A stretch of DNA of 64,000 nucleotides from Octopus vulgaris (lineage: Eukaryota): the NCBI GenBank assembly GCA_951406725.2, contig OX597827.1:33418001-33482000 (forward strand). Direction: 5' to 3'. Made by a program: the position numbers and the translations under genes. The notes under the pieces were generated by a model. That model was not told where the DNA came from. It saw nothing but the letters and a program-made list of their open reading frames with translations, and did not search any database. This document shows positions 12,364 through 61,907 of this stretch, piece by piece (position 1 is the stretch's first letter; every line of letters starts with the position of its first letter).

Positions 12364-12409
12364 GACACCTGATGAAGTCTGCAGGGTATGTCAACTGAAA
12401 CGTTGTGTT
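12364..12409 (+). ncRNA. Minimal type I hammerhead ribozyme motif (Penelope-like)
   Basis: GACAC-CTGATGA-stem II (agtctg..caact)-GAAA-C-GTT-GTGTT. Stem I is GACAC/GTGTT and stem III is the palindrome ACGT. Confidence 0.75.
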
Positions 12410-13295
12410 AACAACAAACAAGATGAGAACAAATATCCGTCAAATGTAAATGATGTAAATAATGTACATAATTCTTCATCTTTTAGATACAAGTTCTTTT
12501 TTTTTTTGAAAGTTACAGAAAATTTATTTGTTCATTTTGCCCAAAACTTTGTAGCTCTGGGTTTATTTGGTTATTTTTAAAAACTGTTCCCACAGAAGTT
12601 ATACTGAATAATCTAGCTCTAGTTTCTTTGTTTAATATTTTAAATTAATATATTTCAGTTTTAAATGAGGATCATTATATTAATTTCTTATGCTATTTCA
12701 AATACTTAGGGCAATCTTGTCTCTTTGATTGCCAAACTAAGATAACAAGTGACTTTGATAACTGACTGAAAATGGAAGTTAGTCTACATTAAATCTGTTG
12801 GCATATTATGGTGGTCGATTTTTTTTTTTTTTTTTTAGTAAGCTCATCCTGCTGGTTAATGGCATTACAATTTCGAATGCTATAAACTTTTATGTAACTC
12901 TTTGAAAAGTTATGTCTGAAATTCCATAACTTCAAATCTTGCAGTGACAGTGCTTCCTGCTGTAGTCAAAATATCCAGTCATTGTTCCAGCTAGTTAAGG
13001 TCCTCAAAGCATCCTGGCTAGCACTATACCTCACCAGTGGTACTAATGTTCCTTGTCAGTTATTAACTGTGTACATCTCACACAAAGAATATATCCTTTA
13101 GATTTCCATTTAGAAGTCAAATCCAGTATTTCATGCTGCCTCCACAAATCACCTCACTAGATGAGTTGTTATATATCCATGTAAATATGAATACTAAATG
13201 ATATAGCACTTTCTATTTTGTAACCTACTATATACATTTATTAAAAAAGTTATAGCCAAAATAACATTTAAATGAAAAAGTAGATGCCTCTTATA

Positions 13296-13495
13296 TCCTT
13301 TCTACTATAGGCACAAAGCCTGAAATTTTGTGGGAGGGCATAAATTGATTACATCAACCCTAGTACTCAACTGGTACTTATTTTATCAACCCTGAAAGGA
13401 TGATAGGCAAAGTTGGCCCAAGCAGCATTCGAACTCAGAATGTGAAGACATGAAATGCATTTCACCCAACGTGCTAATGATTCTGCCAACTCAAC
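13296..13495 (-). mobile_element. tRNA-derived SINE (same family as 57922-58139)
   Basis: Reverse-complement similarity to the 57922 copy (ctgagttcgaat box, ctttcagggttgataaa core, ttgtgcctatagtagaaag tail). Confidence 0.7.
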
Positions 13496-13862
13496 TAATA
13501 ATAGAAGCAGAATTATTAAAAATTAGAAATTAAATATCCCGAAGTTTTTATATTCACAAATTACTGTAATTGAGAAAGGGTGAATAAATTAATGTTATGT
13601 GCACAACATTATTTTAGGAAAGTGGTGTATCATTACAATAGCTACATACATACCTGTAGACTTTTACTTTGCTTTCTCCTTTGTTATGCTTTTGTTTTCC
13701 TCACATTAAACATCAATTAGGTGTCTAGTGTCTTAGGAAATCTGAAGAATATTTAGTCATCCATCATAGAACAGAATGAGGGACGGAATTATTTCCCTTC
13801 CTTAATTCTAACTATACCTGTTCTATGCTTCTACTGTCGAGAGATTAGAATAGACTCTATTC

Positions 13863-14645
13863 CAGTGTTTCCCAAAAATGGGACTGTGGCAAAATGCTGT
13901 GGGACCAGAGGGAAATTTTGGAATAGAGTGAAAATTACATCAATTTCTTCCTAAAATTTTCTATTACTGCCTGCAACTCTTTAAAATTTACACACCCTGC
14001 ATATTACATATCTTAATTTGCCATATCAATCATTTGATTGTTCAATAATAATTCATTAATGATTTATAAAGGATTGAGTTGGCAGTGGTAAGTCTGGTAT
14101 GACAGTCTTATCGCTCATGTCACTTCATTGAACTTTTGAAGTGTTGTAATGTTTCTGAGAAGTAAGTAGCTTTGAAAGCAATCCTAGCTATTGAATGTGA
14201 CAATCTGCCTTTCAGGTATATTTGAGATTTGCTGAACTAACAGCTTCAAGGTAAAAATGCAGATATTTTAAACTGTAAAGCGGCTACTAGTGCTTTCCTT
14301 GAAAAACATAATCTATTTAGGATGAATATTAGGTGTAAGGAGTCTACTTGTTTTCAATCTTGCCACTACCGAGGGGAGGCTGCAAGATGATATTTTAGTA
14401 TACATTGAACACTTAAAGAAATTACACAACGATATGGAAATTAGGCTTAAAGATTTCCTGGAAAGGAACATTCCAAGTTGATTGATGTTGATATTACATT
14501 GCAGTGTAATCAAAGTGTTCAACCTGAACTTAATTATCATAGGCAATTAGTGAAATTGCTATGAAATTCCCATTACTTTAGCAGGAAGTAAAATTATATT
14601 CCATTGCTTTTCCGACATCATACCTAGTTGAGTCAGAACTTTCCC
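13863..14645 (+). mobile_element. Decayed hAT (Buster/Charlie-like) transposon fragment
   Basis: CAGTGTTTCCCAA terminus at 13863; peptide relics LQDDILVYIEHLKKLHNDMEIRLKDFL and AFPTSYLVE (hAT C-terminal motif). Confidence 0.6.
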
Positions 14646-14960
14646 AAATCAGCCAGGCTGCCAAAGGGCTTAATCCGATTTTTTATGCAATTTTAAAAAA
14701 AAAATTTTTGTAATCTTTATTATTATAAATATAAAAATATTCGATGTAAATTAGATTAATAAATACATTTATTATTTACTTCCCTCAAAAATTTACAATC
14801 ACTTAGGTGTAAAATTATATTCCAGGTGATCCTCATTTTGTCCAATATTGAAAAATGTGCAAAACTGCAAATACAAAGGATTTTATATTCAACAAGTAAT
14901 TATATTTTTTACTCACTTAAGCCCTTCATTCCTGTGGAGTATGGGCCATAACATATAGAA

Positions 14961-15082
14961 TTTTCTCAATAAAACCAAGAGAAAATGATGTTTTATAAAC
15001 ACATTCTACCAGTATACGAAGTTTAAAACTTTTCAGTTACCTAGAAATTATGTTACAAAGTGCCGTTCAAAAGGAAAATCCC
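14961..15082. mobile_element. Solo right TIR of the GGATCTTTTCC family
   Basis: cacattctaccagtatacgaagttt...gccgttcaaaaggaaaatcc matches the right TIRs ending at 17017 and 25088. Confidence 0.7.
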
Positions 15083-15270
15083 TAACACAACCACCAGCTA
15101 AACACTATTAATTTAATAACTCTGCTACTATGATTAATATAATACTATATTATACCAATACCCGATCTAATGCAACTACCATTAAAAACTACCTCCTCCC
15201 ATCACTACTAGCAAGTTATACTTCGCTCGCTTTACCTCTGGCTTCATCTGCTAGAAATAGTAGCTAAATA

Positions 15271-16656
15271 GGATCTTTTCCTTTTGATGGACGGAATTTT
15301 CTAGTTAACTAAACAATTTGAAACTTCGTATACTCAAATCATTTGCTGCGTCTAAAAACGTAAACAGCACACACACACGTGTTATTCATCCTTCTCTCTT
15401 CTGTCTGTCTTCTGTCTTCTGCATGTGCTAGAAATAACAGCTATATCTCTTAAATCGATGAATTTCGTCGCCCAACAAAAATATTAACGATATTTTTTGA
15501 ATATTTTCTTTCTTTTTTTTTACCGAAAAGGCTTCTCCCATGGTTTTGAAGGGCCAGAAACAACAAAAACAAAACAATAATATGCCTAAATCGGTCTAGA
15601 GGGTGCGCGTGGAGTATGGGTCGTATTGTAAAAAATTGCGAAATATTTTTTCATAAAAGGATGCCCCAGCTTGTCGGAGGCTGTGATATAAATTGGGGAA
15701 AAAATCCTCGACACCAGTGTGTAATTGGTACTTAATTTATCGACCCTGAAACGATGAAACATTGCCACGCTTATATATTAATTACTATGTGCTTGTGCAA
15801 ATGTATATGCATGTGTTTGAGAGAGAGAGAGAGAGTGTGTGTGCAAGTGTACGTGTGTATGTATCTGAATATATGTGTGTGTGTGTGCGACGTGCGTCTG
15901 CTATGTTTCTTTATCAATATCGATATCGATAACGCAGCAAATGATTTGAGCTGAAATGCTGGCATTTCATTGGTTAAAATTCGAAGAATTAAACTACGTT
16001 AAACTTACAAAGTACAATTTTGTTTTCAATTTTGTTTACAATAATGGGCGAAGTTTCGCATGTCGTAGCGCAGATTTCCGTCGATTTCCGTAAAAAACTT
16101 TTATTTTTTTACATAAGTAATGAGAGCGAAAGAGACTAAGAGGAAGCGATTTTACGACGAGAAGGTTTCACTTTGAAGTCGGCCTGTGTGTGTTTGATGG
16201 GGTGTGGGAGACAGACAGTATGTTGTGTAAGTGAAGTGCTTCTGTTAGTGTGTGCGAAGAGACAGAGAGAGTAATGAGTGAAAGAGAGAGATAACTGATT
16301 TTTTACTCGGTGTATGTGTATATGTATGTATGCATGTATGTGTATATGTATGTATGCATGTATCTATGTATGTGTGTGTGTGTAAGTATGTGTGTGTGTA
16401 TGTATGTATGTATGGCCGATTCATCGTAATTTTTTACTCGGTGTATGTGTATATGTATGTCTGCATGTATGTGTGTGTGTGTATGTATCTATGTATGTGT
16501 GTATGTATGTATGTATGTGTGTGTGTGTATGTATCTATGTATGTGTGTGTGTGTATGTATGTATGTGTGTATGTATGTATGTATGGTCGATTCAGTGTAA
16601 TTTTTTACTCGGTGTATGTGTATATGTATGTCTGCATGTATGTGTGTGTGTGTATG

Positions 16657-16717
<61 letters not shown>

Positions 16718-17017
16718 ATCTGAATATATGTGTGTGTGTGTGCGACGTGCGTCTGCTATGTTTCTTTATCAATATCGATATCGATAACGCAGCAAATGAT
16801 TTGAGCTGAAATGCTGGCATTTCATTGGTTAAAATTCGAAGAATTAAACTACGTTAAACTTACAAATAAAAGTTTTTTACGGAAATCGACGGAAATCTGT
16901 GCTACTACAACCGAAACTATGCCCAATAATGTTTTCTTTTGACACATTCTACCAGTATACGAAGTTTCAAATTGTTTAGTTAACTAGAAAATTCCGTCCA
17001 TCAAAAGGAAAAGATCC
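15271..17017. mobile_element. Non-autonomous TIR element with GG..CC ends and 8-bp TSD (Merlin-like)
   Basis: About 60-bp near-perfect TIR GGATCTTTTCCTTTTGATGGACGGAATTTTCTAGTTAACTAAAC; exact TSD GCTAAATA at 15263-15270 and 17018-17025. Confidence 0.85.
16047..16923. mobile_element. Second GG..CC element nested in the right-TIR region of the first
   Basis: About 60-bp imperfect TIRs (ggcgaagtttcg..gatttccgtcgatttccgtaaaaaactttta); exact TSD CAATAATG at 16039-16046 and 16924-16931. Confidence 0.8.
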
Positions 17018-20760: not shown

Positions 20761-23000
20761 AACAAGTGTCGTATACCAAAGCCTATTCCCCATTTTTTTC
20801 TTCAGGAGAGGTTAGCCACAGCAAGACACACCAGGCATTCCATTTATTTCCCAGCTCATAGGGGCGAGCCCCTTTCTATGCTCGGGTCAAGGCAAAGAAC
20901 GCAACCACCAATATCAGCAGCAGGGCCTGATTGCATATGATGGTTTACCCCCTCCTCCCCCGCCGCATCATGCTGATTCCATACCCCCTTTGAGCAACAT
21001 AAAAATTCACTCATCCATCCACAAACACTCTCCAAGCTTTTCTATCATTTATAAACTCTCTTGCCTCTTTCACTCCAACATCTCTAACTACCAAGGCTTT
21101 CCTCACTCCATCCATCCCCACAAACCGAGGGCTGCCTCTGGTTCTGCTGCTGGGGTTAATGCAGTTTTGCACCTTTCCTTGAAAAATGCATTTTTTTTTT
21201 CAGATTCCTATGTTTTGGATGTCGGAGATTACGAATATGCAAAATAAAAATGTTTAACCCCCACCCCACTACTCCCCACACCAGTTTAAAATTTTGAACT
21301 TTTTCGAAATTTTTTTCCCCTATATTTTAGATTACGGAGATTCCGGATATGCAAGAAACTACGTTTTGAAACTTTAACATTCAATAAGCATATAGATTGG
21401 TATATAAAGAGATAGATGGATATGAATGTCTTCCTGGGGCTAAAAACAACAGTAACTTCTATAGGACCGCCACATTTAGTTGACAAATATATTTTATGAA
21501 TAAACGGATAGGGATAAATAGATAGACAGACAAATAAATAAATGGATGAAAAAGTTCAAAATTTAAAATTGGGGGAGGCTAAAATTTGAGCCCGTTATTA
21601 AACTTTATAACATTAATTATTCAGAGTTGTTACACGACCCAGAGTATGGCAGTTTGATCCAGTTTTGTGTAGACCTAAACAACCAAAACTCAGTAAAAAC
21701 ATGCTATAGCTGCAGTATTATATATTTTGTGCCGCATATTTATAAAGATCCTCGAAAATGTCAATTTTTCAAAAAGTTACAATGTTTTCTTTAAATCTCT
21801 AAGGTATTTCACCTGTTTTCCTATACTTAACCTTTAAAGAAGATATTTTGCTCTTTATCTTTGCCTCAGTTGGATGCGTGGATATATCATCGTGTGGAGG
21901 ATGTCCTTGTTGGAACAATTCCCATGCCCTGCGTGGTGTAATATTAGAATTTTCCCGAAATATTTCCAGCTCTGTTGACTTGAATGGCTCATGAATTCCA
22001 CGGCTAACATTATACAATGTTGACTGTCCCTTTCTTTGCTTTGCCAACAAGGAAGAAATAACAGTTCAAATTTCTGTTTCCGATGGTAAATCCAAACGCC
22101 CAGGATGTTTACGTTTAAGTTCCACTGACATTTTACCTGGACCTCGTTTTCATTACCCAAATTAAACATATCAATAATTTCTTGTTTAAATGGACCCACA
22201 TACTTTCGACCATACTTATTACCGTGCTTTTCTTGTTCTTGCCCATCCTGCTTCAAATCCACAACACTCATGATTATGCTGGATTGCTTCATGAATGGGA
22301 TTAAACATCTTAAGTTCTTCAACATTTGAACTAATATTAATCACCTCAAATTGATGCTGTTCATCTATGTCTTTAGTATAAACAATAGCTTGACTGATTA
22401 AATCTTATTGTCCTAAGGCTCCCTTGCAATTATGGATTTCCATTTTGTCCCTACGACATAAATTACATTGAAGGGGATTTTCATCGTCTGATTCTATATC
22501 CGAATCATTAATATTTGATGCTACAGCAACTCCAAAACGATACTTGTCTGAGATATTCCCCTCAACGCCATCTATATATCTAAAACTGAGAATGTGTGTC
22601 TGTCTGTCTGTGTGAATCCCTAAAACTTGAGAACTACACAACCAATTTCATTCAAATTTTACACATGCCTTACTTAGGGTCCATGGAATGTCATGGACAA
22701 AAAAATCTTCAACTTCTTGCCTAGCGCGAGCCCACAGCAATATCATATCTTCTCCACTATTTCAGTATTACATGTTAAAAGTGAAACAAAAACATCTCTC
22801 TATTGTATGTATATGGATGTATTTATATATATATGTATAGCTGTATATGTATACATGTACATGTATAGATGTATTTCTATAGATATACATGTATATGTAT
22901 ACATGTATGTCTAGATGTATATATATATATATATATATGTACATGTAATATGTACACATATACATACATATATATATACACCCATACACACACACATACA

Positions 23001-24285: not shown

Positions 24286-25088
24286 GGATCTTTTCCTTTT
24301 GAACGGCAGTTTTCAACACAATTTCTAGTTAACTAAACACTTTAAAACTTCGTATACTGGTAGAACGTGTCAAAATAAAACATTTTTTCTCTTGGCTTTC
24401 TTGAGAAAATTGTAATTTGTAAGTTTAACGTAGTTTAATTTTTCGAATTTTAACCAATCAATCGCCTCTATTCAGCTAAAATCATTTGCTGCGTCTAAAA
24501 CTGAGACAACATCCTGTCACTGTTATGTTTACGTTCGGAAAGCGTGTGTATAAAATTATAGAATTATTTTGTTTGTTAATTGTTTAAATTATTTTCCATT
24601 GCTTTCATTTTAGCCTTTCGGTTTTTTTTTTCTTATGCAAAGGAAAATAGTTTAAACAATACACGTGTATCTCAAAACAAAAACTCAAAACAAAAACAAA
24701 ACGAATAATTTTAGACACACGCGTAACAATTAAATTAATTTAACAATTAAGAAAAAAAAAAACGAAAGGCTAAAATTTAGGGTTAGGGTTGGGGTTAGGA
24801 TTAGTGTAGGGTTAGGGTTAGGGTTAGTGTAGGGTTAGAGCTAGGGTTAGGGTTAGTGTCAGAATGTTGTCTCAGTTTTAGACGCAGCAAATGATTTTAG
24901 CTCAGTAGAGGCCATCGATTGGTTAAAATTCGAAAAATTAAACTACGTTAAACTTACAAATTACAATTTTCTCAAGAAAGCCAAGAGAAAAAAATGTTTT
25001 ATTTTGACACATTCTTTGATACGAAGTCTAAAAGTGTTTAGTTAACTAGAAAATGTGTTGAAAACTGCCGTTCAAAAGGAAAAGATTT
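24286..25088. mobile_element. Long-TIR (~235 bp) element of the GGATCTTTTCC family carrying internal TTAGGG repeats
   Basis: 24286-24520 is inverted to ~24856-25088; flanks CCTTCAAG/CCTCCAAG (8 bp, 1 mismatch); TTAGGG-like tract at 24777-24856. Confidence 0.85.
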
Positions 25089-26440: not shown

Positions 26441-26731
26441 GTGATGTTTGTGGTGGAAGTTATAAGTTCAGCAAAAATTTAGATTCAGATGAATATGGTA
26501 CTTAAGTTGAGGCACCAGAATTTAGTATAGTATTATCCATACAATTTCAAAATAAGATGATTAGAATCTAAATAAGCAACAAGGATATCCACAGGTAATG
26601 CAGTATGATTGTTTCTAAGTGGAAGGAAGGACAACAATGTTATTTGTCTATCTCCTTAACTTCTTGGAGATTTTAGGCAAAATTATACTAATGTGTCCAT
26701 CTGTTTTAATTTAATTAAATTATATGTCTTT

Positions 26732-26819
26732 GTGCAGCTGAGGATTGGTCTGCATTTAAATTGATGTAATGGTTGCATTGTTCAATTAAATGGAGTTGTG
26801 TGAAACGATCGTACTGTAT
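26732..26819 (+). ncRNA. Type I hammerhead motif with long stem II
   Basis: GTGCAG-CTGAGGA-..-GAAA-CGATCG-TA-CTGTAT. Stem I is GTGCAG/CTGTAT, stem III is the palindrome ACGATCGT, cleavage site GUA. Confidence 0.65.
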
Positions 26820-26934
26820 TACCTCTGGATATCCTTGTTGCTTATTTTGATTATATATATATATAATGTGCTACAAATTAAACTCATAAATTTTATCCAA
26901 CACTGCTTGTGTAAATTAAATTTAATTAAATACA

Positions 26935-27082
26935 GAGGCATGGGTGTGGCTTTGTGGAAAGAAGGTTCTGGGTTCACTCTTACTGCATGGTACCTTGGGC
27001 AGGGGAATTTTACTGCAGTACCAGGCTCAGCAAGGACTTGTGAGCGAATTTGGTTGATGGAAACTGAAAGAAGCCTGTCGGG
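26935..27082 (+). mobile_element. SINE (23001 family), degenerate
   Basis: ggttctgggttcac..ccttgggca..gatggaaactgaaagaagcctgtcg. Confidence 0.65.
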
Positions 27083-27101
27083 CATGTGTGTGTGTGTATA
27101 C

Positions 27102-27156
<55 letters not shown>

Positions 27157-27162
<6 letters not shown>

Positions 27163-27813
27163 GAAACATAAGACCAGGTAATTTAATCTGCAAACATGAC
27201 TCCAATTTCAGATGAATTTAAAGAACAATTATATACATGATACATTAAAAGTATGTAAATACATATACATTTTTTAAAAATCTATAAATATATTAAAAAT
27301 ATATATGTAAGATAATAGATTTTTTAAAAAATCTTTAGATGTAGACATAAGTATATTAAAATGTACATGTATACGTAAATATTTTGAAGAAGGTCTGAAG
27401 TAGTGATGAAAGTGAAATTAAAGATACAAGGAGGAAAGAAATTAAAGGTCAGGATAGTTAAAAATAGGGTACTGACAGCTGTTTCTAGAAATTAATTGCA
27501 AGTAAAAATAAGGGGATATAGTACTCATTATTTAGCAATTCCTCCATCTTCAGGGTAGGAGGTTTTACATTTGCAAATTAACAAGTTATGTATACATGTA
27601 TGTTTTAATATACCTATGTCTACATCTAAAGATTTTTAAAAAATCTATTATCTTACAAATATATTTTTAATATATCTATTTATTTATAGATTTTTAAAAA
27701 ATGTCTATGCATTTATATATTATTAATGTATTATATATATAATTGTTCTTTAAATTCATCTGAAATCGGAGTCATGTTCATGGATTAAATTACCTGGTCT
27801 TACGTTTCTTCAT
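27157..27813. repeat. ~215-bp inverted repeat pair (27157-27373 / 27590-27813) enclosing a hammerhead
   Basis: gaagaaacataagaccaggtaatttaat.. is the reverse complement of ..attaaattacctggtcttacgtttcttc. Confidence 0.85.
27471..27556 (-). ncRNA. Type I hammerhead motif
   Basis: Minus strand: TACC-CTGAAGA-TGGAGGAATTGC..GCAATTAATTTCTA-GAAA-CAGCTG-TC-AGTA. Stem III is the palindrome ACAGCTGT, cleavage site GUC. Confidence 0.65.
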
Positions 27814-27817
27814 ATTA

Positions 27818-29095
27818 TTGAGTTGACAACTAAGTTCCTGCCGTTTTTTTAAATTTTGGAATCTATTTTTTTCAAGAATTCTATTTTTGAATCATTTTGG
27901 AATCTATTTTATTTATTTATTTTTTTTCTAGTTAATTTTAGTTAATTTTTGTTTATTTTCAGATCATTAAAATGGAATGTCAAGTTAAGAAAAATGAGCA
28001 TTTTCAACACCTCCTTCTTTTTGCTTTTAATCAAGGTTCTAAGGCCACAAAAGCTGCTCGCAACATTTGTGCTGTGTATGGAGAGGGTGCAATAGCTGAA
28101 AGAACCACTCATGATTGGTATGCCAAGTTCAAAAATGGAAATTTTGACCTCAAAAACACACCTCATTCTGGCCGTCCAGTTGAGTTCGATGAAGAACAAT
28201 TAAACTAACTTTTGCACGAAAATTCTCATCAAACAACGAGGGAACTGGCAGAGAAAATGGAATGCTCCCACACTGCTATGGAAAAGCATCTTCACTCGAT
28301 GGGAAAGGTTCAAAAGTATGGAGCATGGGTTCTGCATTATTTAAGTGACAACAACAAAAATCAATGAGCCACAATCTCTGCTGGTTTGCTTGCTTGTCAC
28401 CGCTCAACACATGGGCACAAACAACGATTTCTTTACCGAATAATTACTGGTGACAAAAAATAGTGCCTGTACATCAATATGAAGCAGTGTGCTGAATGGC
28501 TTAGCCCCAGTAAACAAGTGACACCATGCGTGAAACAAGATCTTCATCCGCGTAAAACAATGTTGTGCATATGGTGGGAATGGGAAGGGATTATCCATTA
28601 CGAATTACTTGAATGGAACCAAATGGTCAATGCAAAACTCTATGTTCCACGGATGGAATGACTCAACATGGCTGTTCAAGAGAAAAGACCTAATCAGCAT
28701 CATGGAGTTCTTCTGCTGTACGACAACACCCGCCCTCATATCGCCAATATGACCAAGGAAGCCATTCAAATGCATGGTTGGGAAGTGCTGTCACACCCGC
28801 TATACTCTCCTTATTTGGCACCAAAGGATTTCCACCTCTTTTGATCTCTTTCAAATGCTATGCGCAGAGTTTTGTTCGATACTGATACAGAATTGAGAAC
28901 TTGGTTGGATCAATTTTTCGAGTCGAAATCGGGTGATTTCTATAAATGAGGTATTGAAAATCTTGTTGAACATTGGGTAGAAGTTGTAAACAACAAGGGT
29001 GAATACATTATTGATTAATTAGATGTTACTTTTTTAATAAAACTTTTAAAAAAGTAAAATTTTAAAAAAAACCAGGAACTTAGTTGCCAACCCAA
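27818..29095 (+). mobile_element. Full-length mariner transposon (mellifera/capitata-like), inactive
   Basis: TIR TTG(A/G)GTTG(A/G)CAACTAAGTTCCTG at both ends, TA on both flanks, about 1.28 kb. Confidence 0.93.
27972..29018 (+). pseudogene. Mariner DD34D transposase with premature stops
   Basis: MECQVKKNEHF.., WVLHYL, IITGDKK, YDNTRPH, HPLYSPYLAPKDFHLF; several in-frame stops. Confidence 0.92.
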
Positions 29096-32290: not shown

Positions 32291-32326
32291 CCTTTCTGAT
32301 GAAGAACTATGCTCGAAACATTAAAA
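32291..32326 (+). ncRNA. Degenerate minimal hammerhead motif
   Basis: TTT-CTGATGA-AGAAC-TAT-GCTC-GAAA-CAT-TA-AAA; stems are weak or mutated. Confidence 0.5.
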
Positions 32327-40670: not shown

Positions 40671-40719
<49 letters not shown>

Positions 40720-40792: not shown

Positions 40793-40825
<33 letters not shown>

Positions 40826-41449: not shown

Positions 41450-44400
41450 TGTATAAACTTAGATATGTTTCGACCAAAGATTGGTCCAAGCCATGTCTAA
41501 CTTAATAGCACCACCTGATAGGATTATTTGAATCCTGTTTAAGTCAAGTTTTGTTTATGGTCCATTCAAGTAGTGAGTTTTTGTTGGGTGAGTTGTATCC
41601 AATTATGGGTGGCTTATCTGGTATTCCTTGAAGGAATCTATCCAGACTCCGTTTAAAGTTGATGGGATCCTTTTCCTCTTTGATCCCTTTCGGGACAATG
41701 TTAAATAGGGCAGGGCCTGTTGAGGAAAATAAATTATGATGCAGTGTACATGTATGCTGTGATCTGGAATTGGGCAGGGGACGTATGGCCCGTGGTCCCA
41801 GTCTTGGATGAACCTTGAAGCTAATGGGCAAAGTTGGCGGTATATTCTCCACATCGTACAAATGATGTACCGCTCACAGCGACGCTGGAGAGTGTAGAGT
41901 TTCAAGGCTTTAAGGCGATCCCAATAATCGAGAGCAGCCATGCCTTCAATTCGTTTAGTGAGTGCCCTCTGGGGCGATTCAATCCTCGAGATGTTTTGTC
42001 TTGTATGGAGAGACCACAGTGGGCAGCAGTATTCGAGTTGTGGCCGTACAAAGGAGGAGAAAAGTGGTATGATGACACATTGTTCTCTGGACCGGAAAGT
42101 TCTTAAGATCCAGGAACTCATCCTACGAGCTATATCGACCTTCTTGTTGATGTGTGCACTCCAACTGAGATCGTCATCAACAATTACACCCAGGTCTCGG
42201 ATATTGTTAGAGGCTGTGAGCGGATCCCCTGAAGGAAGAGAGTATGGCTGTTTTAGTGAGGAATTTCTTCCAAAATGCATCAGCTCAAATTTTCCCTCGT
42301 TCAGTTGCATTTTGTTTCTGTCTGCCCATTGACTCACAGCATATAGATCAGACTGGAGTTGAGTTCGGTCTGCTTCTTCATTCACAATTTGCTGGAGCTT
42401 AGTGTCATCAGCAAATATTTTTACTTTGCAGTAATGTACGACACTGGAAAGGTCGTTTATGTAAATTATGAAGAGTAGCGGACCCAAGACAGTCCCCTGG
42501 GGGACACCGCTGGTGACTTTTGCTGGGCTTGAGTGGACTCTGTCAACTACAACATGTTGTGTTCTATTCGCCAGGAAATACTTGATCCAGTGTAGAATTT
42601 TTCCACGGATTCCAACATTTGCCAGTTTTGAGAGTAGGATATTATTGGTCTACCGTCTACCCTGTCGAACGCTTTACTGAAGTCAAGATATATGACATCA
42701 GAGTTCAAACCTGTTCCCAAGGCTTTGAGTACATCTTCAATATGGTGCAAGAGCTGTGTTAGACAGTCCCTGCCACAGCAAAAGCCATGCTGATTTGCAT
42801 TTAGGAGTTTGTGGGTCTCCAGGAAGTCAGCTATCCTTGATCTTAACACTCTTTCAAACACTTTAATGATGTGGGAGGTGAGTGAGATTGGGCGATAGTT
42901 GAGTGCGAGGGATCTGTTTCCCTGTTTGAAAACCGGGATGACTGACTGGGATAGAAACTGTTTTGGTATATAACCTGCGTCTAACGAATTTCTCCTGAGG
43001 TTGGTCAGAGGGGCTGTAAGTTGGTGTCTACATTCCTTCAGGAGACTAGCGGGGAATCTATCAGGGCCTACAGCAGAGTAGTATTTGACCTCATTTATTG
43101 CTGCTATGATGTCAGTTGCAGTGAAGGTTATGTCAGAGATTTTATGTTGAGAGTCAACTTCGTTCGCTTCTCTTACGTTAATATCAGTGGGAATACTAAA
43201 GACAGAGCAGTATTATTTCTGCCATTTCTTTAGCATCGTGTTGGGAAATGCCGTTATCATCAATCAATGGCCCAATGGGTGAGACAGTGGTTCTATGCTT
43301 ATTTGCATAAGAATAGAACACTTTTGGGTTCTGTTTGATGTTTTTGATTACCCACTGTTCCTCCACAGCTCTTTGATTTTCAATGGAGGTTTTCATGTCG
43401 GTCTGCAGATGAAGTTTTTCCAGCTCTAGCCTTTTCATTGTTGTTGAATGTGGATGTTGTATGTGGGAATATTTTAATTGGTTGATTTTTTTGTTGAGTC
43501 TTTTGATGCGCCTGATGAGTGTTTTTTTCTTTTAGGGAGCCGGTTTCTGTTTGTGTTAGTAGATTTCGTGGGAGCGTGTTTAGAGCATGTATAGGTGACA
43601 ATGTTGTCAAAGTGCTGCCATGCGGTCTCAATATGGGTGGAATTGAGAGTAAAAGACCAGTCGATGAAAGACAGATCCTTTCTGATTGCTCCTCAGTCCA
43701 CTTTGTGGAAGTTTATGTTGTCAAATGAGTGCCATGGAGTGGGATTGGCTGGTTTGGTTTTTATATGTCGGGAATTAAAATTGCAGAGTACCATGTCGTA
43801 GTCTGAGAGGAGAGTTTTTTCAACTGAAATACTGTGAACGAAGCTAGAGTGATTGGTCAATACCAGATCCAAGATCGTTTTATTCTGTCTCATTGGTTCG
43901 AGCACTAGCTGAGTCAGGAAGTATTCATCCATTAGATTAAAGAGCAGTTCTGCTGCTGCTCTATCTGATGTAGAGCATTTGCCTAACTTCAGAGTATTTG
44001 TGGGCCAGTTCACATGAGAGAGGTTAAAATCACCCATCACTAGTATGTTTCCGGAGTTGTACTTCCGAAGGAAGGACTTGACTTTGCTAAGGCACTCTTC
44101 AAAACACTTTAGAGGTGCTTGGGGAGGCCTGTAAAGACCAACAATGATTATGTCCTTGGCCTTGTTGAATAGTGATACAGATTCACAATAGCCATTGGAA
44201 AATATGTCCTTGGCATCAAGTGAAAAGGAGTCATGGATAAAGATGTCTGTCCCTCCCTCATTTCAGTCTGTGCGATCCACACTTACAATGGTGAAATCTT
44301 TTATTTTCACCTCGGCGTCCATATGGGTGTTGTTCAGGTGAGTCTCGGTAAGGATAAAGAAAGGGAAGCAATGTGCCGTTTCGGCAAGCCAACTCTCTAT

Positions 44401-45230
44401 ATATGGGATCTTCCATTTTTGGGCAATAATTGATGGGTTGATGCCACCTACATTTAACAGGAATGTAGAGGTAAGGGAAGTTTGATGTTTGCATTGTTCT
44501 AAGTTATGTTTTATGTTGTTCAGTGGTAACAGTGTGGGTAGGAGCTGTATGTGTATGATTTTCTTGTTGGTAGTGGGTGTGTGGTCCTTGTGATTTGCAT
44601 AGGTGGTTGCTGATATCTCGTTGGATCTCCTGGCTTAGGTCGGCCTTCATATTTTTTAGGCAAAGATGTTGAGGCGAAAGTGGATGGTTTTAATTGTTTT
44701 GGTGTTTTGCTTATTTGTTTGCTTTTTAATGGCATGTGCAGTGGGGTGATAGTGGTGGATGGTGGTGGGTGATGGCTCGGATGTTTTTTTCCAGTTCTTT
44801 TGCTAGATTCATTATAGCTAAAAAAGAGGAAGAAGTTTCTTGTCTAGAAGAGTTTGTTGTTGAGGTTGTTGTTGTTGTTACGCCAGTGATGCGTTCGAAG
44901 AGAAAACACATCTCAGTTTATCGAAGTGTTTATTTATTAATTTAAAAGCAACTTCGATTTGTTTTAATTTATTTTGTATCTGCTGTTCAGATCGAGTTTG
45001 CAAAAGGTGAACTGTTCATTTAGCAATTTCGTTCAGACACGAAGTGCCTATGCTCTCTGTTTGGGTAAGGCAATGCCATGTGTTGATAAGAACGTCGATT
45101 TCAGTTTTTGTTGGATTTTTGGTGGCTAGCCATTCTGGTGGATATGTTTTATTAAAATTTATTTTGTTCGTTTGTTTTGTTGATGATTTTTATTTATTTT
45201 TTAATTTTTTTATAAGGAGAAGTATGTAGA
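41450..45230 (-). mobile_element. Near full-length CR1-group LINE (APE + RT), disrupted
   Basis: GLYRPP, MGDFNL, ILDLVLTN, NYRPISLTSH, YLDFSKAFDRV, GVPQGTVLGPLLF, FADDTK and VRPQLEYCCPLWS; possible ORF1 relic at ~44500-45130. Confidence 0.9.
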
Positions 45231-49810: not shown

Positions 49811-52800
49811 TCATCATCATCACCATCATCGTTTAACGTCCGTTTTCCATGCTAGCATGGGTTGGACGGTTCAATTGGGGTCTGGAAAGCCAGAAGGCTG
49901 CGCCAAGCCCAGTATGATCTGGCAGTATTTCTACAGCTGGATGCCCTTCCTAACGCCAACCACTCCGTGGGTGTAGTGCGTGCTTTTTACGTGCCACCTG
50001 CACAGGTGCCAGACGAGGCTGGCAAACGGCCACGATCGGATGGTGCTTTTTACGTGCCACCGGCACAGGGGCCAGACGAGGCTGGCAACGGCCACAATCG
50101 GATGGTGCATTTTACATGCCACCGGCACGGAGGCCAGTCGGAGCAGCGTTGGCAACAGCCACGTTCGGACGGTTCTCTTATGTGCCACCGGCACTGGTAT
50201 CTCAGCTACAATTTCCATTGATGTTGATCAATTTCGATTTTCATTTTCATTTTCACTTGCCTCAACAGGTCTTCACAAGAAGGAAAGGTATGCATAAGTG
50301 GGCTGGCCACGTACCAGGTAGGGGCCACGGGTTATGGTCTCACTTGTCCTGCCGGGTATTCCCACACACAGCATACTTCCAAAGTTCTCGGTCTCTGGTC
50401 ATATCCTCTGTGAGACCTAATGTTCGAAGGTCGTGCTTCACCACCTCGTCCCAGCTTTTCCTGGGTCTACCTCTTCCACAGGTTCCCTCAACCTCTAGGG
50501 TGTGACACTTTTTCACACAACTATCTTCATCCATTCTCGCTACATGACCATACCAGTGCAAACGTCTCTCTTGCACACCACAACTGATGCTTCATAGGTC
50601 CAACTTTTCTCTCAAGCTACTTATACTCTGTCAAGGATGAACACTGACATTACACATCCATTAGAGTATACTGGCTTCATTTCTTGCGAACTTACTCATG
50701 TCCTCAGCAGTCACGGCCCAAGTTTTAGTGCCATGTAGCATGGCTGTTCGTACACATGCATCATACAGTCTGCCTTTTATTCTGAGCGAGAGGCCTTTTG
50801 TCACCAGCAGAGGTAATAGCTCTCTGAACTTTGCCCAGGCTATTCTTACTCTAGCAGTTACACTTTCAGCACACCCGCCCCCACTACTTACTTGGTCACC
50901 AAGGTAACAGAAGCTATCAACAATTTCTAGTTTTTCTCCCTGGAATGTGGCGGAAGTTGGTCTCTGAGCATTTGCATTTTCAGTGTTTATTGCTCCTGAG
51001 CATCTGCCACATACAAAAACTATCTTCCTAGTTAGCCTTCCTTTGACATTGCTGCACCTCTTATGTGTCCATAGCTTACACTTGGTGCATCTTATAGAGT
51101 TTCTACCTACGCCTTTTCTACAGATCAAGCAGGGCCATCTACCTGAAGGCGTTTGTGATTTGCCTGCCTTCCTACATATTAGCTAGGTTAATTTTAAGGC
51201 CCTTCGATTCTAATCCTCGTCTCCACACTTGAAACTTTGCCTCTAGTTCTGATAGTGACTCAGCAATTAGAGCAAGGTCATCAGCATATAGGAGCTCCCA
51301 GGGGCATCCTGTCTTGAATTCCTCCATTATCGCCTGGAGGACTATGATAAATAGGAGGGGGCTGAGGACTGAACCTTGGTGGACCCCTACCTCTACCCTG
51401 AATTTTTGAGTATACTCGTTGCCAACCCTCACCTTACTTACAGCGTCTCTGTACATGGCTTGCACAGCTCTCACTAACCATTCATCTATCTCTAGTTTCC
51501 TCATTGACCACCAGATAAGGGATCGGGGGACCCTGTCAAAGGCTTTCTCCATGTCAACAAAAGCCAGGTACATGGGCTTATCTTTGGCTAGGTATTTCTC
51601 CTGCAGTTGTCTCACCAAAAATATGGCATCAGTGGTGCTTTTCCCTGGCATGAAACCAAACTGCATCTCATCCAAGCTGACTCTCTCCCTAATCAGTTGG
51701 GCTATGACCCTCTCCGTAACCTTCATTACCTGATCCAAAAGCTTGATACCTCTGTAATTATTTGTATCTAAAGCATCACCTTTACCTTTGTAGCAGTTGA
51801 CTATTATGCTGCTACACCAGTCATTGGGTATGACTCCTTCGTGTATCACCTGGTTAACTATACGGGTGACTAGGCTATAGCCGACACTACCAGATATTTT
51901 AAGCATCTCTGCAGTAATTCCTGATGGGCCTGGGCCTTTCCCTGTCTTCATGCTTCTAATTGCCTTAACTACTAAGGAACTGTCAACTCGGATAGCTGGT
52001 CCCATTCATTTTCCTTATTTAGCAGCCTCTCATAATGGTGTCTCCATACCTCTCTCTTTGTATCCTCATTCAGCGCAAGCGAGCCATCATCCATGCGAAC
52101 ACATTTCTCTCCTACCACATCATGATGCTCTCTCACACACTGTCTTGCAACACAGAATACCTCAAGTCTTTCGTCCTCACGGCGCAGAACATTGGCAAAT
52201 TTTTTCTTATCTGCTTCCCCTCTGGCTAAATAAACCTGTCTCCTAGCTTCTCTTTTGGCAGTCTGATACAATTACCTGCTACCACCATTTTTCCAGTCCT
52301 TCCAAGCCTGTCTCTTTTCTCTAATAGCCGTGTCTACATTGTTCCACCACCACATTATTTTGGGTCGAGAGGGGACTTTGCACCAGCCACAGATCTGGTC
52401 AGTGGCTCTCAGCAGGTTGTCCCTACCCCCATGTGAAGCTATATACCCTTCTACTTTGTCAAAGGCTTCAAGTAATATGTCCCTAAGTCTCTGTCCATTC
52501 GCAGGATCTTTAAGCTTCCGAATCCTTCTCCATGTTGGTCGTCTTCTGGTCACCCTCTTAGTCCTGATCCTGAAGTCACTAACTACCAGTCTATGTTGTG
52601 GGGTACATTCTTCGCCTGGGAAGGTTTTGGCATTTATAAGCAGCCATCTTTCCCTTTTCCTGGCAAGGATGTAGTCAATTTGGCTGGTATGTCGGCCCGA
52701 TCGGTAGGTGACTAGGTGGCTGGTAGGTTTCCTGAAGTTAGTGTTGCAAACCATAAGATCATTTGCATCACAGAACTCCAGCAGCCTGGTTCCCTCCTTG

Positions 52801-53155
52801 TTGCGGGAACCATAACCATAGCCTCCATGTACACCATGGAAGCCCCCAGCATGTCGTCCAACGTGACCATTGAAGTCACCAGCCACAAAGAGAAGGTCTC
52901 TGTCGTTCGTCAACGAGGTAGTCTGCTGTAGGGTGTCATAGAATCGGTCTCTCTGCCCATCGGGTAGCCCCAGCTGAGGGGCATAGGCCGATATAATGGT
53001 TGCTAATCCATGATGAAGCACTAATCTAATCTTAAATATTCTGTCACTTACTCTATTTACCTCTATTACCTTATCTACCCATTTTTCAGCGAGAAGTATA
53101 CCCATGCCCCCAACACCGTCAGTGTTTCCTGCCCAGAAAATCTTGTACCTGTGTT
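49811..53155 (-). mobile_element. RTE-clade LINE, 5'-truncated (APE, RT, PHD-like Cys motif, 3' UTR)
   Basis: ISAYAPQ, GDFNGHVG, QIDYIL, FVDMEKAFDRV, GVHQGSVLSP, LYADDL, C..C..W.HKRC and RLHWYGHV; (CAT)n tail. Confidence 0.93.
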
Positions 53156-53157
53156 CT

Positions 53158-53171
53158 TATGTATGTATATG

Positions 53172-53203
<32 letters not shown>

Positions 53204-53250
53204 TATGTATGCATATATATGTATGTATATGTATGTATATATATGTATGC

Positions 53251-53282
<32 letters not shown>

Positions 53283-53301
53283 GTATGTATGTATATGTAT
53301 G

Positions 53302-53344
<43 letters not shown>

Positions 53345-53601
53345 TTATGTATATATATGTATGTATATGTATGTATATATATGTATGTATATGTATGTAT
53401 ATATATGTATGTATATTTATGTATATATATGTATATTTATGTATGTATATATATATATGTATGTATATATATATGTGTATATATATATATATGTATGTAT
53501 ATGTATATATATGTGTATATATATATATATGTATGTATATGTATATATATGTGTATATATATATATATGTGTGTGTATACGTATATATATTTGTATATAT
53601 A
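53158..53601. repeat. (TA/TATG)n microsatellite between two divergent RTEs
   Basis: Direct inspection. Confidence 0.95.
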
Positions 53602-56600
53602 TGAGGTTGTTAGGGTATGTGATAGAATGCTTAAGCTTAGGTTAGTCCTGCAGAACAGCACAGCTATAATTATTTCTGCCTACACCACACAAGTGGGCCT
53701 ACCAAATGATCAGAAGGACCATTTTTGATACTCTTCTACAGGCTACCTCAAAGACATATGGCAATGACTTCATCTTTGTGACCAGGGATTTGAATGGGCA
53801 TGTTGGGCAGCAGTCTGGTGTCTTCACTGGTATATACGGGGTTCATGGTATTCGTTCCCGAAAAGATGAGGGAACTAGGCTACTGGAGTTCTGTGATGCA
53901 TGTAACCTTTTAATCTACAACTCTAACTTCAGGAAGCCAGACAATCACCTGATAACCTATCAATCAGGTGACTCCGCTAGTCAGATTGATTTCATCCTCA
54001 CCAGACAGTGGAGCGCAGGGTTTATCTAAAATACAAAGACCCTCCCAGGTGAAGAATGTACCCCCAGCATAGACTAGTCATTAATGACTTTAGACTCAAG
54101 GCCAGAAGGATGCCAAGAAGCAGACCAATCCAGAAAAGAAGGTTTTGGAAGCTAAAGAACCCTTCACATGATCAGAGATTTAGGGACATCCTCATCAAGA
54201 AATTTGATGAGAGGGAGGAGGAGCTACAGACCTTTGAGATAGAGGGAAACTGGAAATTCCTATGGGACAGCTTACTGTGTGCCACAGACCAAGTCTGCAG
54301 ATGGTGCAAAGTCCCTTCCAGACCTAGAGTCACGTGGTGGTGGAATAATATGGTAGGCAAAGCCATTAGAACAAAGAAACAGGCCTGGAAAGCCTGGAAG
54401 GGTGGGGGTAGCAGGGAACTGTACCAGGTAGCCAAAAGGGAGGCTGGGCGGCAGGTATACATAGCCAAGGACAAAGCAGAAAAGAAGAAGTTTACCAATG
54501 TCCAGCAATGTGAGGACCAAAGAACTGAGGTATTTCGGATTGCAAGACAGTGTGTGAGAGAAAATTGTGATGTCACAGGAGAGAAATGTGTCCGCATGGA
54601 TGATGGTGCACTTGCTTTTAATGATTTGGAAAAGAAAGAGGCTTGGAGAAGCCACTATGAAAGACTGCTGAACATGGACAATGAATGGGAGGAGGATAGC
54701 CTGCCAAATGTTGACTCAGTAGAGGGACCAGCTATCTGAATAGATAGCACCCTGGTAGATAAAGTAATTAAGGGTATGAAGCCAGGAAAAGCCCCTGGCC
54801 CATCAGGAATCACTGTTGAGGTGCTTAAAACATCTGGTGGCGTGGGCTATGGCCTAGTCACCCACATTGTAAACCAAGTAATTCATGATGTAGTCATACC
54901 CAATGACTAGCATAGCAGCACCATAGTCAACTGCTACAAGGGTAAAGGTGATGCTTTAGATAGAAATAACTACAGGGGTATCAAACTGCTGGATCAGGTG
55001 ATGAAAGTCACGGATAGGGTTATAGCCCAACTAATTTAGGAGAGAGCCAGTTTAGATGAGATGCAGTTTGGGTTCGTGCCAGGGAAAAGCACCACTGATG
55101 CTATATTTCTGGTATGGCAACTGCAGGAAAAATACCTAGCCAAAGATAAACCCCTATACTTGGTTTTTGTGGACTTAGAGAAATCCTTTGACAGGGTCCC
55201 ACAATCTCTTATCTGGTGGACAATGTGGAAACTGAGGATTGACGAATGGTTTGTAAGGGCTGTACAGGCCCTATACAGAGATGCTGTGAGTAAGGTTAGG
55301 GTTGGCAATGAGTATAGTGAAGAATTCCGGGTAAAAGTAGGGATCCACTAAGGATCAACCCATAGCCCCTTCTTATTCATCATAGTCCACCAGGCAATAA
55401 CAGAGGAATTCAAGACAGGATGCCCCTAGGAGCTCCTCTATGCTGATGACCTGGCCCTCAGCTGAATCACTACCAGAACTAAAGAAGTGTGGAAGCAAGG
55501 TTTAGAATCAATGTTGCAAAGACCAAAGTTCTAGTAAGTAGGAAGGTGAATGCATCACACACCCCTTCAGGTAGGTAGCCCTGCTCGATCTGTAGAAAAG
55601 GTATAGGTAGAAACTCCATAAGATGTACCCAGTGTAAGGTATGGACACATAAGAGATGCAGGGAGATTAACCGGAAACCTAGCTTTCAAATACAGCAGAT
55701 GCACAGGGGCAATAAACACCACAGATGCTCAGAAAACATTCCATCACATGCCCAGAAGACAATCTAGAAGTAGTTGGTAGCTTCTGCTACCTAGGTGACC
55801 AAGTCTGTAGTAGAGGTGGATACTCAGAGGGTGTTACCACTAGAATAAGAATAGCCTGGACAAAGTTCAGAAAGCTTCTACCCCTACTGGTGACAAAGGG
55901 CTTCTTGCTCAGAGTGAAAGGTAGATTGTACGATGCATATGTGTGAACTGCCATGCTCCACGGCAGTGAAACATGGGCTGTGACTGCTGAAAACATGCGT
56001 AGGCTTGAGAGGAATGAAGCTAGCATGATCCGCTGGATTTGTAATGTCAGTGTGCACACATGACAGAGTGTAAGCACCCCGAGAGAAATATTGGACATAA
56101 GCATTGGATGTGGTGTGCAAGAGAGACGTTTGCATTAGTATGGTCATGTACTACGGATGGATGAGGAGAGATGTGTGAAGAAGTGCCACTCTCAAACAGT
56201 GGAAGGAATCCAAGATAGAGAGATACCCAGGAAGACATGGGGTGAGGTGGTGAAGCATGATCTTCGAACGTTGGGCCTCACAGAGGCAATGACAAAAGAC
56301 TGAGACGTCACAGAGGCAAGGACAAAAGACTGAGACCACTGAAGATATGCTGTGACTAAGAAGACCCGGCAAATAAAGTGAATTCATGCACCAGTGTCAC
56401 ATAAACAGCCCCCTCAAAAGTACATTGGCTCATCAGGCGACATGCCATGCATGAGGGGACCTATTGAGTCAAGTACATCAAAATCAAATGGATATTGAAG
56501 TTGTGGTCCCCATGCCGGTGGCACGTAAAAAGCACCGTCCAAACTTGGCCGATGCCAGCACCGCCTTGACTGGCTTCCGTGCTGGTGGCATGTAAATGCG

Positions 56601-59847: not shown

Positions 59848-60944
59848 CATCATCATTTAACGTCCGCTTTCCATGCTAGCATGGGTTGGATGATTTGACT
59901 GAGGTGTGGCGAACCAGTCTCCAATCTGATCTGGCAGAGTTTCTACAGCTGGATGCCCTTCCTAATGCCAACCACTCCGAGAGTGTAGTGGGTGCTTTTA
60001 CATGCAACCAGCACAAGGGTCAATTTGGTGGTACTAGCAACAGCCACATCCAAAAGGTGCTTTTTACATGCACAGGAGCCAGTCCAGCAGCACTGGCGAC
60101 GTCCTCGCTTGAATGTTTCACATGCCACCACCACAAGTGCTAGTAAAGTGACGCAGTAACGATCACACTTGAATTGTGTGCTTAACGTGCCATCAGCACA
60201 AAGGCCAGTTTGTTGCTCTGGCAACGATCTCACTCGTATGGTACTCTTAGCGCTCCACTTGCAACGGATGCCAGTCACCGAGTTTAGTGTACAATGAAGA
60301 AAGGGCACGCATAAGTGGACTGGTTACACCTCTAGCATAAGCCACAAGGTTATGGTCACGCTTGCGTTTGCCGAGTCTTCTGCAGCACAGCATATTTCCA
60401 GAGGTCTCGGTCACTAGTCATTGCCTCGGTGAGGCCCAATGTTTGAAGGTCATGCTTTACCACCTCATCCCAGGTCTTCCTGGGTCTACCTCTTCTGCAG
60501 GTTCCCTCAACTGCTAGGGTGTGGCACTTTTTCACATAGCTATCCACATCCATTCTTGCCACATGACCACACAGCACAGTTGTCTCTCTTGTACACCACA
60601 CCTGATGCTTCTTAGGTCCAACCTTTCTCTCAGGGTACTAACACTCTTTGGAGTATGCACACTGACATTACACATCCATCGGAACATGCTGGCTTCATTC
60701 CTTGCGAGCTTACGCATATCCTCAGCAGTCACGGCCCATGTTTCACTGCCATGTAGCATGGCTGTTCGTACACATGCGTCATACAGTCTACCTTTTACTC
60801 TGAGCGAGAGGCCTTTTGTCACCAGCAGAGGTAATAGCTCTCTGAACTTAGCCCAAGCTATTCTTATTCTAGCAGCTACGCTTTCAGTGCACCCTCCTCC
60901 ACTACTGATTTGGTCACCTAGGTAATGGAAGCTATCAACTACTT
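59848..60944 (-). mobile_element. RTE 3' fragment
   Basis: KGLSLRVKGRLYDACVRTAMLHGSETW, GRPRKTW and a (CAT)n tail. Confidence 0.9.
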
Positions 60945-60981
60945 CTATATATATATATATATACTTATATATATATATATA

Positions 60982-61033
<52 letters not shown>

Positions 61034-61428
61034 GTATATTTATGTATGTTTGTATGTATATTTATGTATGTATGTATGTATATTTATATATGTATGTATA
61101 AATATGTATACATGTGTATGCATATATATATTTGTATATATATGTGTATGCATATATATATGTATATATATGTGTATATAAGTATATGTATATATGTGTG
61201 TATATATATATATATGTATGTATATATATATATATGTGTATATATATATGTATATATATATATATGTGCATGTGTGTGTATATAAGTATATGTATATATA
61301 TGTGTATATATATATATGTATATGTCTATATATATATGTGTATATATATGTGTGTGTATATATGTATGTATATATGTATGTATAAATATATGTGTTTATA
61401 CATGCGTGTGTATATGTATATATATATA
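60945..61428. repeat. (TA/TG)n microsatellite
   Basis: Direct inspection. Confidence 0.95.
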
Positions 61429-61495
61429 GAATTGTTAATCAGGATGTCAAACATCTCAAGTCATATACAATATTATTAAAGGAAGAAATTCAAAA

Positions 61496-61549
61496 TCTTA
61501 CAGCTGTTTCTGTGATATCCCCGAGTATGGGATATTCCGTCATTAGAGA
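61496..61549 (-). ncRNA. Hammerhead motif (core mutated to CTAATGA)
   Basis: Minus strand: TCT-CTAATGA-..ATATCCC..GGGATAT..-GAAA-CAGCTG-TA-AGA. Confidence 0.6.
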
Positions 61550-61853
61550 CAGATTGGGGAAAAAATATGGAAAATGAGAATGGTATATATCAATAAGATG
61601 TTATTTAATGTTGACATGTTTGTGTCTTTTTCGCTGGATATCTACTATACAAGGACTGTAACCCACATGGATATACATAGGATTGCACCTCAGGACTCAT
61701 GCTTTGCTTTCTATAACTTTGGAATGTTGAACTGTCAACTTTTATGCCTCTTCTTTTCTCCCTCTTTCCATCTTATTCTTTTACTCCCTTCGTCTATGTT
61801 ATCATTTTATTGATATATACCATTCTCATTTTCCATATTTTTTCCCCAATTTG

Positions 61854-61907
61854 TCTCTGATGATGGAATAGCCCATACTCGAGCATATCCCAGAAACAGC
61901 TGTAATT
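61854..61907 (+). ncRNA. Hammerhead motif (intact core, damaged stem I)
   Basis: TCT-CTGATGA-TGGAATA..TATCCCA-GAAA-CAGCTG-TA. Confidence 0.65.

Follow-up and report, generated by a model that had tools for sequence, protein, structure and literature searches.

Hammerhead motifs with palindromic helix III in a 64-kb region of the Octopus vulgaris genome, most likely the 3' ends of truncated Penelope-like elements

The window analyzed here, meaning the whole 64,000-nt stretch at positions 33,418,001 to 33,482,000 of the forward strand of contig OX597827.1 (GenBank assembly GCA_951406725.2), comes from the genome of Octopus vulgaris. It has a GC content of 38.6% and many TA/TG microsatellites, and it carries remnants of long interspersed nuclear elements (LINEs) with Pfam matches to reverse transcriptase (RT) and AP-endonuclease, along with mariner/Tc1 remnants. 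Within it, nine type I hammerhead ribozyme motifs with a palindromic helix III were identified, belonging to eight unrelated repeat families. They are most likely the 3' ends (pieces of the pseudo-long terminal repeats, pseudo-LTRs) of 5'-truncated and likely inactive Penelope-like elements (PLEs). The motifs and the repeat copies that carry them are as follows (positions are those of the window; scores are those of the graded search described below).

12364 to 12409, plus strand: hammerhead A, with a 5-bp stem I, an intact core, a 21-nt helix II closed by A-U, helix III ACGT without a loop and cleavage triplet GUU; the best-preserved short copy, adjoining a satellite block.
26616 to 26855, plus strand: long copy of family B, a very abundant repeat, running to an (AT)n tract.
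26732 to 26819, plus strand: hammerhead B, with a 6-bp stem I, an intact core (N7 is G), a 57-nt helix II with a decayed base and U.U at its closure, helix III ACGATCGT and predicted cleavage after UA.
26562 to 26615, minus strand: B', a partial inverted copy of family B that starts at GAAA and is without the CUGANGA box (89% identity to 26802-26855).
27160 to 27585, minus strand: long copy of family C, extending ~310 nt beyond the cleavage site to an (AT)n tract.
27470 to 27557, minus strand: hammerhead C, with an intact core, a 61-nt helix II closed by U-A, helix III ACAGCTGT and the first pair of stem I broken (C.A).
27586 to 27811, plus strand: shorter inverted copy of family C, consisting of the 3' part only, without the hammerhead (mean column identity 87%).
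32293 to 32325, plus strand: hammerhead D, the weakest (score 7.1), with an intact core, a bulged A followed by a G-C closure as in the published layout, a 3-bp A-U stem I and helix III ACAT (C.A); a microsatellite tract lies on each side.
37483 to 37528, minus strand: hammerhead E, with a mutated core CCGACGA (U4 to C), a 10-nt helix II closed by A-U, helix III ACTC-T-GAGT and seven of eight pairs in stem I; a microsatellite tract lies on each side.
40326 to 40422, plus strand: hammerhead F, with an intact core, a 72-nt helix II closed by A-U, helix III ACGCATGT and a 3-bp stem I; the piece ends ~250 nt downstream at the microsatellite 40669-41092.
41187 to 41275, minus strand (core at 41270): hammerhead G, with the top score (19.1), an intact core, a 5-bp stem I, a 60-nt helix II closed by U-A and helix III ATGATTGT with two G.U pairs, on a 330-nt piece between microsatellites.
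61495 to 61550, minus strand: hammerhead H1, with a mutated core CTAATGA (G5 to A), a 29-nt helix II with C.A at its closure, helix III ACAGCTGT and a 4-bp stem I, on a short inverted copy (61430-61603) whose end lies at (TA)n.
61853 to 61908, plus strand: hammerhead H2, with an intact core, a partly decayed helix II closed by U-A, helix III ACAGCTGT and a broken stem I (two of the first three pairs missing), on a long copy at ~61604-61990.

The CUGANGA and GAAA boxes are both intact at seven of the nine sites, with a single change in E and in H1; changes at G5, the position altered in H1, abolish hammerhead activity. The palindrome of helix III is perfect in A, B, C, H1 and H2; in D, E, F and G its center has a single mismatch or wobble. 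ACAT at site D is likely a decayed ACGT, and ATGATTGT at site G likely a decayed ACGATCGT. The best-preserved sites are A, F and G. Homology among the sites is limited to H1 and H2 (90% identity over 156 nt) and to B with its partial inverted copy B', which gives the count of eight families.

A first-pass annotation of this DNA had listed eight hammerheads, and at all eight the order of stem I, CUGANGA-like box, helix II, GAAA, palindromic helix III, UH and stem I was recovered within 5 nt of the positions it gave. The palindromes were also as it had described them (ACGT, ACGATCGT, ACAGCTGT at three sites, ACTC-T-GAGT and ACGCATGT), as were the independence of several families, given that only H1/H2 and B/B' are homologous, and the choice of the site at 32291 (D) as the least clear, with its C.A in the ACAT palindrome and its 3-bp A-U stem I. 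Its description of a CUGANGA core with pairing stems at every site was too generous: the core reads CCGACGA at 37487 and CTAATGA at 61496, stem I is without its first pair at 27471 and without two of its first three at 61854, and at 26732 helix II has a mismatch at its base. It also overlooked the best-scoring site, at 41270 on the minus strand, and the partial inverted copy at 26562-26615 (minus strand).

The number of motifs was compared with chance expectation. A fixed descriptor with a perfect core gave three matches against a mean of 0.06 (maximum 1) in 100 local dinucleotide shuffles, and a graded score of at least 7 gave seven matches, missing B and H2, against a mean of 0.18 (maximum 3) in 200 shuffles; both descriptor and score were devised after the sites had been seen. 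With one core mismatch allowed, the descriptor recovered four of the nine sites, and its four matches did not significantly exceed the shuffles (mean 2.17, maximum 7). The expectation that the motifs occur above shuffled-sequence frequency was thus borne out for the perfect core and the graded score and not for the relaxed core. The reversed sequence and eight decoy cores gave 0-3 matches under the fixed descriptor. Both stems were present in two of 121 core-plus-palindrome matches in viral contigs, and in a metagenome control one of 49 matches, judged by eye, had the three opening pairs in both stems. Family-specific patterns had no match in the metagenome or viral contigs.

These counts bear on the idea that the motifs are chance cores beside AT-rich DNA hairpins of elements resembling miniature inverted-repeat transposable elements, which we regard as very improbable. 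The relaxed-core count fits it, as do the weak folding z-scores of the whole motifs (-1.9 to +1.6) and the lack of any hammerhead family in Rfam scans of the window (150 of 184 rows in one scan and all rows in two further scans), and site D taken alone could be chance. Unremarkable z-scores are, however, what such motifs should give, since they are not expected to fold as monomers, and the perfect-core and scored counts lie far above the shuffles. For families B and C chance is largely refuted by the family letters described below, in which stems are repaired, the palindrome is swapped and the boxes stay fixed.

Several further candidates were set aside. Those at 916, 24405, 24971 and 60196 had low scores inside the shuffle range, and one at 22490 was not recovered in later scans. 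A look-alike at 41460-41505 (minus strand) is without a CUGANGA box and by eye is a simple stem-loop at a LINE 3' end; its internal loop holds GAAA, and the LINE that it ends is at 41600-44600. Solo hammerhead-like motifs were also seen in two sets of metagenome loci, one comprising L136 (1101-1139), L122, L138, L140, L146 and L148 and the other L121, L131 and L160. These loci are AT-rich and eukaryote-like, with U-A closure, helix III ACAGCTGT and no long open reading frame (ORF) nearby; good stem I pairing was found in L136 alone.

To read the state of the families behind the window copies, contigs from four sequencing runs were aligned to 26520-27850, covering families B and C, and 40 of 110 difference rows, 15 of 83 joints (with 12 further rows) and 24 of 1,279 loose ends were listed. 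Three of the five listed differences in the motif of family B create or strengthen helix II pairs and two are neutral; the family letters restore three pairs at the helix II base, and a sister form has helix III CGGCCG replacing CGATCG (loose-end consensus, 76 records). Ten differences were listed for family C: four give better pairing, including repair of the broken first pair of stem I, one gives a wobble, two jointly convert an A-U pair of helix III to G-C, one is neutral (a C-to-U change at H17), and two would disrupt a pair if no unlisted partner changes with them. The CUGANGA and GAAA boxes were untouched among the listed differences. From window copy to family letters, the energy of helix II improves from -12.8 to -15.6 kcal/mol in B and from -8.1 to -19.2 kcal/mol in C. 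Because the family letters improve both the pairing and the helix II energies, families B and C are better hammerheads than their decayed window copies, and the stem covariation that had been proposed as a check was found in both.

In run X1 the summed depth, which is not copy number, was 1.1e6 over the B ribozyme, 42 in a neighboring unique bin and 270-820 across the ribozyme of C with its tail; family B is plainly very abundant and family C is not. One run, guessed to be RNA, had contigs over B and one that was uncut across the C junction; it was not used as evidence.

Families B, C and H are each present in the window as two copies that face outwards, the shorter one inverted relative to the longer, with arms 87-91% identical; H1 and H2 are separated by 311 bp. 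Two more opposite-strand joints of family B were found outside the arms (one contig each), and several others were not counted, being mapping effects of the inverted arms. A (TA)4+ tract lies at most 350 nt downstream of the cleavage site at seven of the nine sites, against 20% of random positions (p ~3e-4, at a threshold chosen with the data in view), and upstream at four of nine; the tract nearest to site C lies inside the copy, whose true end is at a distance of 314 nt. Microsatellite flanks D, E and G on both sides, enclosing pieces of 150-330 nt, and F and G meet the same tract from opposite sides. Upstream, the depth of family B in X1 falls in steps from 1.1e6 to 4.7e5, 2.8e5 and 1e4, and its long records exceed the 5' end of the window copy by 48-79 nt. 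Past the B' arm (bin 26520-26564) the family-like depth is 2.5e5, against 2.6e4 past the B arm; family-like letters beyond B' reach at least 26557.

Inverted pairs with one shorter arm and contact with microsatellites have been described for PLEs. Inverted 5'-truncated copies, one-sided tails (30-40 bp at one end only in endonuclease-bearing, EN+, PLEs) and a bias toward microsatellites were reported by Craig (2021, bioRxiv 10.1101/2021.04.23.441226), and pairs of minimal hammerhead ribozymes (min-HHRs) on opposite strands, 100-700 bp apart, were reported by Cervera and De la Pena (2014, PMC4209133). The latter found min-HHRs in the pseudo-LTRs of metazoan PLEs, mostly as single elements that probably derive from truncated PLEs. 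The link to Penelope-type minimal hammerheads drawn in the first-pass annotation is supported. Reverse-complement telomeric repeats, which adjoin the hammerhead in Athena/Terminon telomeric elements, were looked for by eye over 330 nt downstream of each of the nine sites and not seen.

In the window, where no tandem unit was found, every site is without a same-strand partner of its own family, which rules out dimerisation in cis. These results weigh on a reading of the sites as non-LTR retrozymes, whose tandem-array transcripts cleave and become circular RNAs. The type I topology and palindromic helix III are common to animal retrozymes (PMC7229834), yet the window holds no tandem copy of any motif, and no head-to-tail joint spanning a whole unit appeared among the listed joints and further rows. 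Moreover, in a read-through RNA of B or H the ribozyme would be buried in a duplex with the inverted arm, with which it can pair at 20 of 20 positions in B and 56 of 62 in H. A retrozyme origin is very improbable.

A coding partner was searched for with Pfam in 365 stop-free frames, namely 251 of at least 36 aa within 1.5 kb of the sites and 114 of at least 62 aa elsewhere, leaving out positions 1-12,200 and microsatellite-dominated frames. No GIY-YIG domain was found among them, the RT matches accompany AP-endonuclease matches and are of LINE type only, and no host gene was found. The earlier statement that no Penelope ORF lies nearby thus holds for these frames at Pfam sensitivity. A homologue search with the frame upstream of G gave no candidate, and among 49 metagenome loci matching a generic pattern, of which 13 were inspected, the eukaryote-like ones had no long ORF. 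Two upstream frames, before G and before H2, faintly resemble a Neptune-type C-terminus; they were not used as evidence.

If the copies are truncated PLEs, a missing ORF is expected, because the truncation would have removed it. It would equally be missing if most sites were dedicated non-autonomous elements of 150-450 nt, akin to short interspersed elements or solo retrozymes, that borrow the Penelope protein. We consider this unlikely, though it is the alternative with most in its favor: family B is very abundant across only ~230-290 nt (a summed depth in X1 of ~2.6e4 times that of the unique bin, which is not copy number), and non-autonomous PLE derivatives have been published (bioRxiv 10.64898/2026.07.22.740005; Craig, 2021). 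Against it, the depth drops in steps upstream and not at a single edge, the long records overrun the 5' ends of the window copies, ORF-less copies are explained by 5' truncation alone, and the variable inversion points fit truncation. This is the view of the first-pass annotation, which proposed a large population of non-coding ribozyme retroelements. That step is not needed, as truncated PLEs suffice, and it is the weaker reading because inverted pairs, contact with (TA)n and a depth that falls upstream are features published for 5'-truncated PLEs. The very abundant family B may nevertheless be of non-autonomous origin.

A truncated-PLE origin would imply the following sequence of events. Two hammerheads on one tandem transcript of the parent element would be brought together by pairing of their palindromes, with cleavage following UH, probably helped by the element's own protein. 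A GIY-YIG endonuclease would nick a (TA)n or AT-rich target, where reverse transcription may begin 40-310 nt downstream of the ribozyme and end early, leaving the ribozyme without an upstream ORF; a second, inverted copy would sometimes be added at insertion. From their sequences, most copies appear to be fossils, several of them mutated, and cleavage is a prediction.

Retention of some copies by the host as functional ribozymes, used to process host transcripts, is extremely unlikely. The intact core and opening stem pairs of A, F and G, and the presence of the C junction with few differences in the run of a second organism, would agree with such a use, but drift has brought the inverted arms down to 87-91% identity, and the window copies fall short of the family letters, as under neutral decay. 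In vitro, no cleavage was seen for monomers of this class (PMC4209133), and the scanned frames hold no host gene.

A number of points weigh against the derivation from truncated PLEs. Beside none of the sites was a remnant of a Penelope-type RT or GIY-YIG found at Pfam sensitivity, and an ORF-bearing copy was not seen for any family, so that the Penelope parent is inferred. The scores, the 350-nt threshold and the site list were fixed after the data had been seen, and H1 and H2 are not independent. Divergence, or a short non-autonomous element, could likewise account for the loss of depth upstream. The family letters, which cover B and C among the eight families, are unphased sums over subfamilies; of the two changes in helix III of C, run X8 has one at full depth and the other at less than a third of it. 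In structure, the min-HHR consensus (>80%) of PMC4209133 has a bulged base after A9, a G10.1-C11.1 pair and no helix III loop. The bulge and this pair occur together at site D, and the other eight sites are without them, with closure by A-U in A, E and F, U-A in C, G and H2, C.A in H1 and U.U in B; exceptions of this kind occur in the alignment of that paper itself. Its Fig. S7 descriptor, re-implemented with a helix II of 3-7 bp, a loop of 3-10 nt and no helix III loop, passes none of the nine sites.

The rest of the window is rich in other repeats. At 1147-7474, degenerate TTAGGG arrays stand head to head, with (GGGTTA) x249 on the plus strand, (TA) x143 and then (AACCCT) x752, at 72-74% matches and interrupted by a GC-rich hexamer stretch near 4000-4300; this is the arrangement of an old end-to-end fusion or interstitial telomere. 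A satellite of 10-bp units and a conserved ~45 bp unit, with higher-order periods of 61-206 bp, follows at 7490-12290 and ends right before hammerhead A. A fold-back element at 24288-25086 has inverted arms of 230 bp (93% identical) and encloses a short TTAGGG tract (24777-24859); related pieces are found at 14956-15334, 15865-16011 and 16720-17017. A mariner remnant with HTH_48 and Transposase_1 matches (27812-29000) directly adjoins the short arm of family C. Two inverted RTE-like LINE copies, 74% identical across 2.7 kb and with a PHD-like finger following the RT, occupy 50416-56275, and further 3' pieces are at 60288-60945 and 62534-63322. A stop-free frame of 161 aa at 21858-22340 (minus strand) has no Pfam match; its Atlas matches, all <0.9, are animal clusters, none of them PLE-named, and one look-alike cluster carries DUF7869 on 28% of its members.

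With nine motifs in ~52 kb of non-satellite DNA, the density is ~1 per 6 kb, decayed copies included, in a single window near telomeric repeats. Neither Rfam nor the published descriptor picks up hammerheads with a long helix II; a relaxed search would recover Penelope relics missed alike by protein-based annotation and standard ribozyme scans. A more far-reaching possibility, put forward tentatively, is that at least four separate Penelope-derived families of this lineage evolved hammerheads with a helix II of 57-72 nt, A-U or U-A closure and a helix III palindrome of 8 nt, which form a very large class, with family B a ~250-nt non-autonomous element of the order of 10^4 copies; the long helix would then stabilize the fold or bind the Penelope protein. 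If true, animal genomes would contain far more hammerheads than have been counted, since every member of this class is missed by both the published descriptor and Rfam. In the Anolis PLE PAc, cleavage is protein-assisted and dispensable for insertion in vitro (PMC11167929). The independent families with 8-nt palindromes and natural compensatory swaps would make good constructs for dimer cleavage.

When compared to known systems, the sites resemble most the min-HHRs of PLEs (PMC4209133), with which they share type I topology, a short stem I, the palindrome of helix III and a genome that holds many unrelated families, as well as the occurrence mostly as single copies, the opposite-strand pairs and, at five of the nine sites, a U-rich 5' flank. 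Those ribozymes showed no cleavage as monomers and low cleavage as dimers. O. vulgaris has 30 Penelope families with recent insertions, in a report whose main text makes no mention of a ribozyme or hammerhead (PMC13282606). Resemblance to the Poseidon element PAc of Anolis (Frangieh, 2024, PMC11167929) lies in its RT start, which is internal and downstream of the hammerhead, and its AT-rich targets, which would together yield short 3' tails; PAc differs in being full length, with an ORF that begins in helix II, whereas no ORF is recoverable here. Non-LTR retrozymes (PMC7229834; bioRxiv 10.64898/2026.07.22.740005) are likewise non-coding, PLE-related and equipped with a type I hammerhead, and solo monomers of them occur, but their definition rests on tandem 150-450 bp units and on circular RNA, and the window holds no tandem unit. 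The U.U at the helix II base of B has been described for the axolotl retrozyme (PMC7229834).

The main structural difference is the helix II of 57-72 nt in B, C, F and G, compared with at most ~24 nt in the descriptor and the 56-row alignment of PMC4209133; the "long helix II" of PMC13725137 is one of 6 bp. No description of a 60-70-nt helix II in PLE hammerheads was found in the literature searched, a weak claim given incomplete coverage. The closest published layouts are those of the Marsupenaeus japonicus PLE and Saccoglossus kowalevskii family 2 (PMC4209133, Fig. S3), which also have no bulge after CUGANGA, a longer palindromic helix III and cleavage after UA, with A-U closure in the shrimp; their helix II, at 11 and 23 nt, is far shorter. 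The bulge-free layout, the long palindrome and the A-U closure are thus already in print, and the octopus motifs, mostly fossil, belong to a known kind, of which they are a modest structural variant, with a helix II of 57-72 nt in four families and mostly A-U or U-A closure without a bulge.

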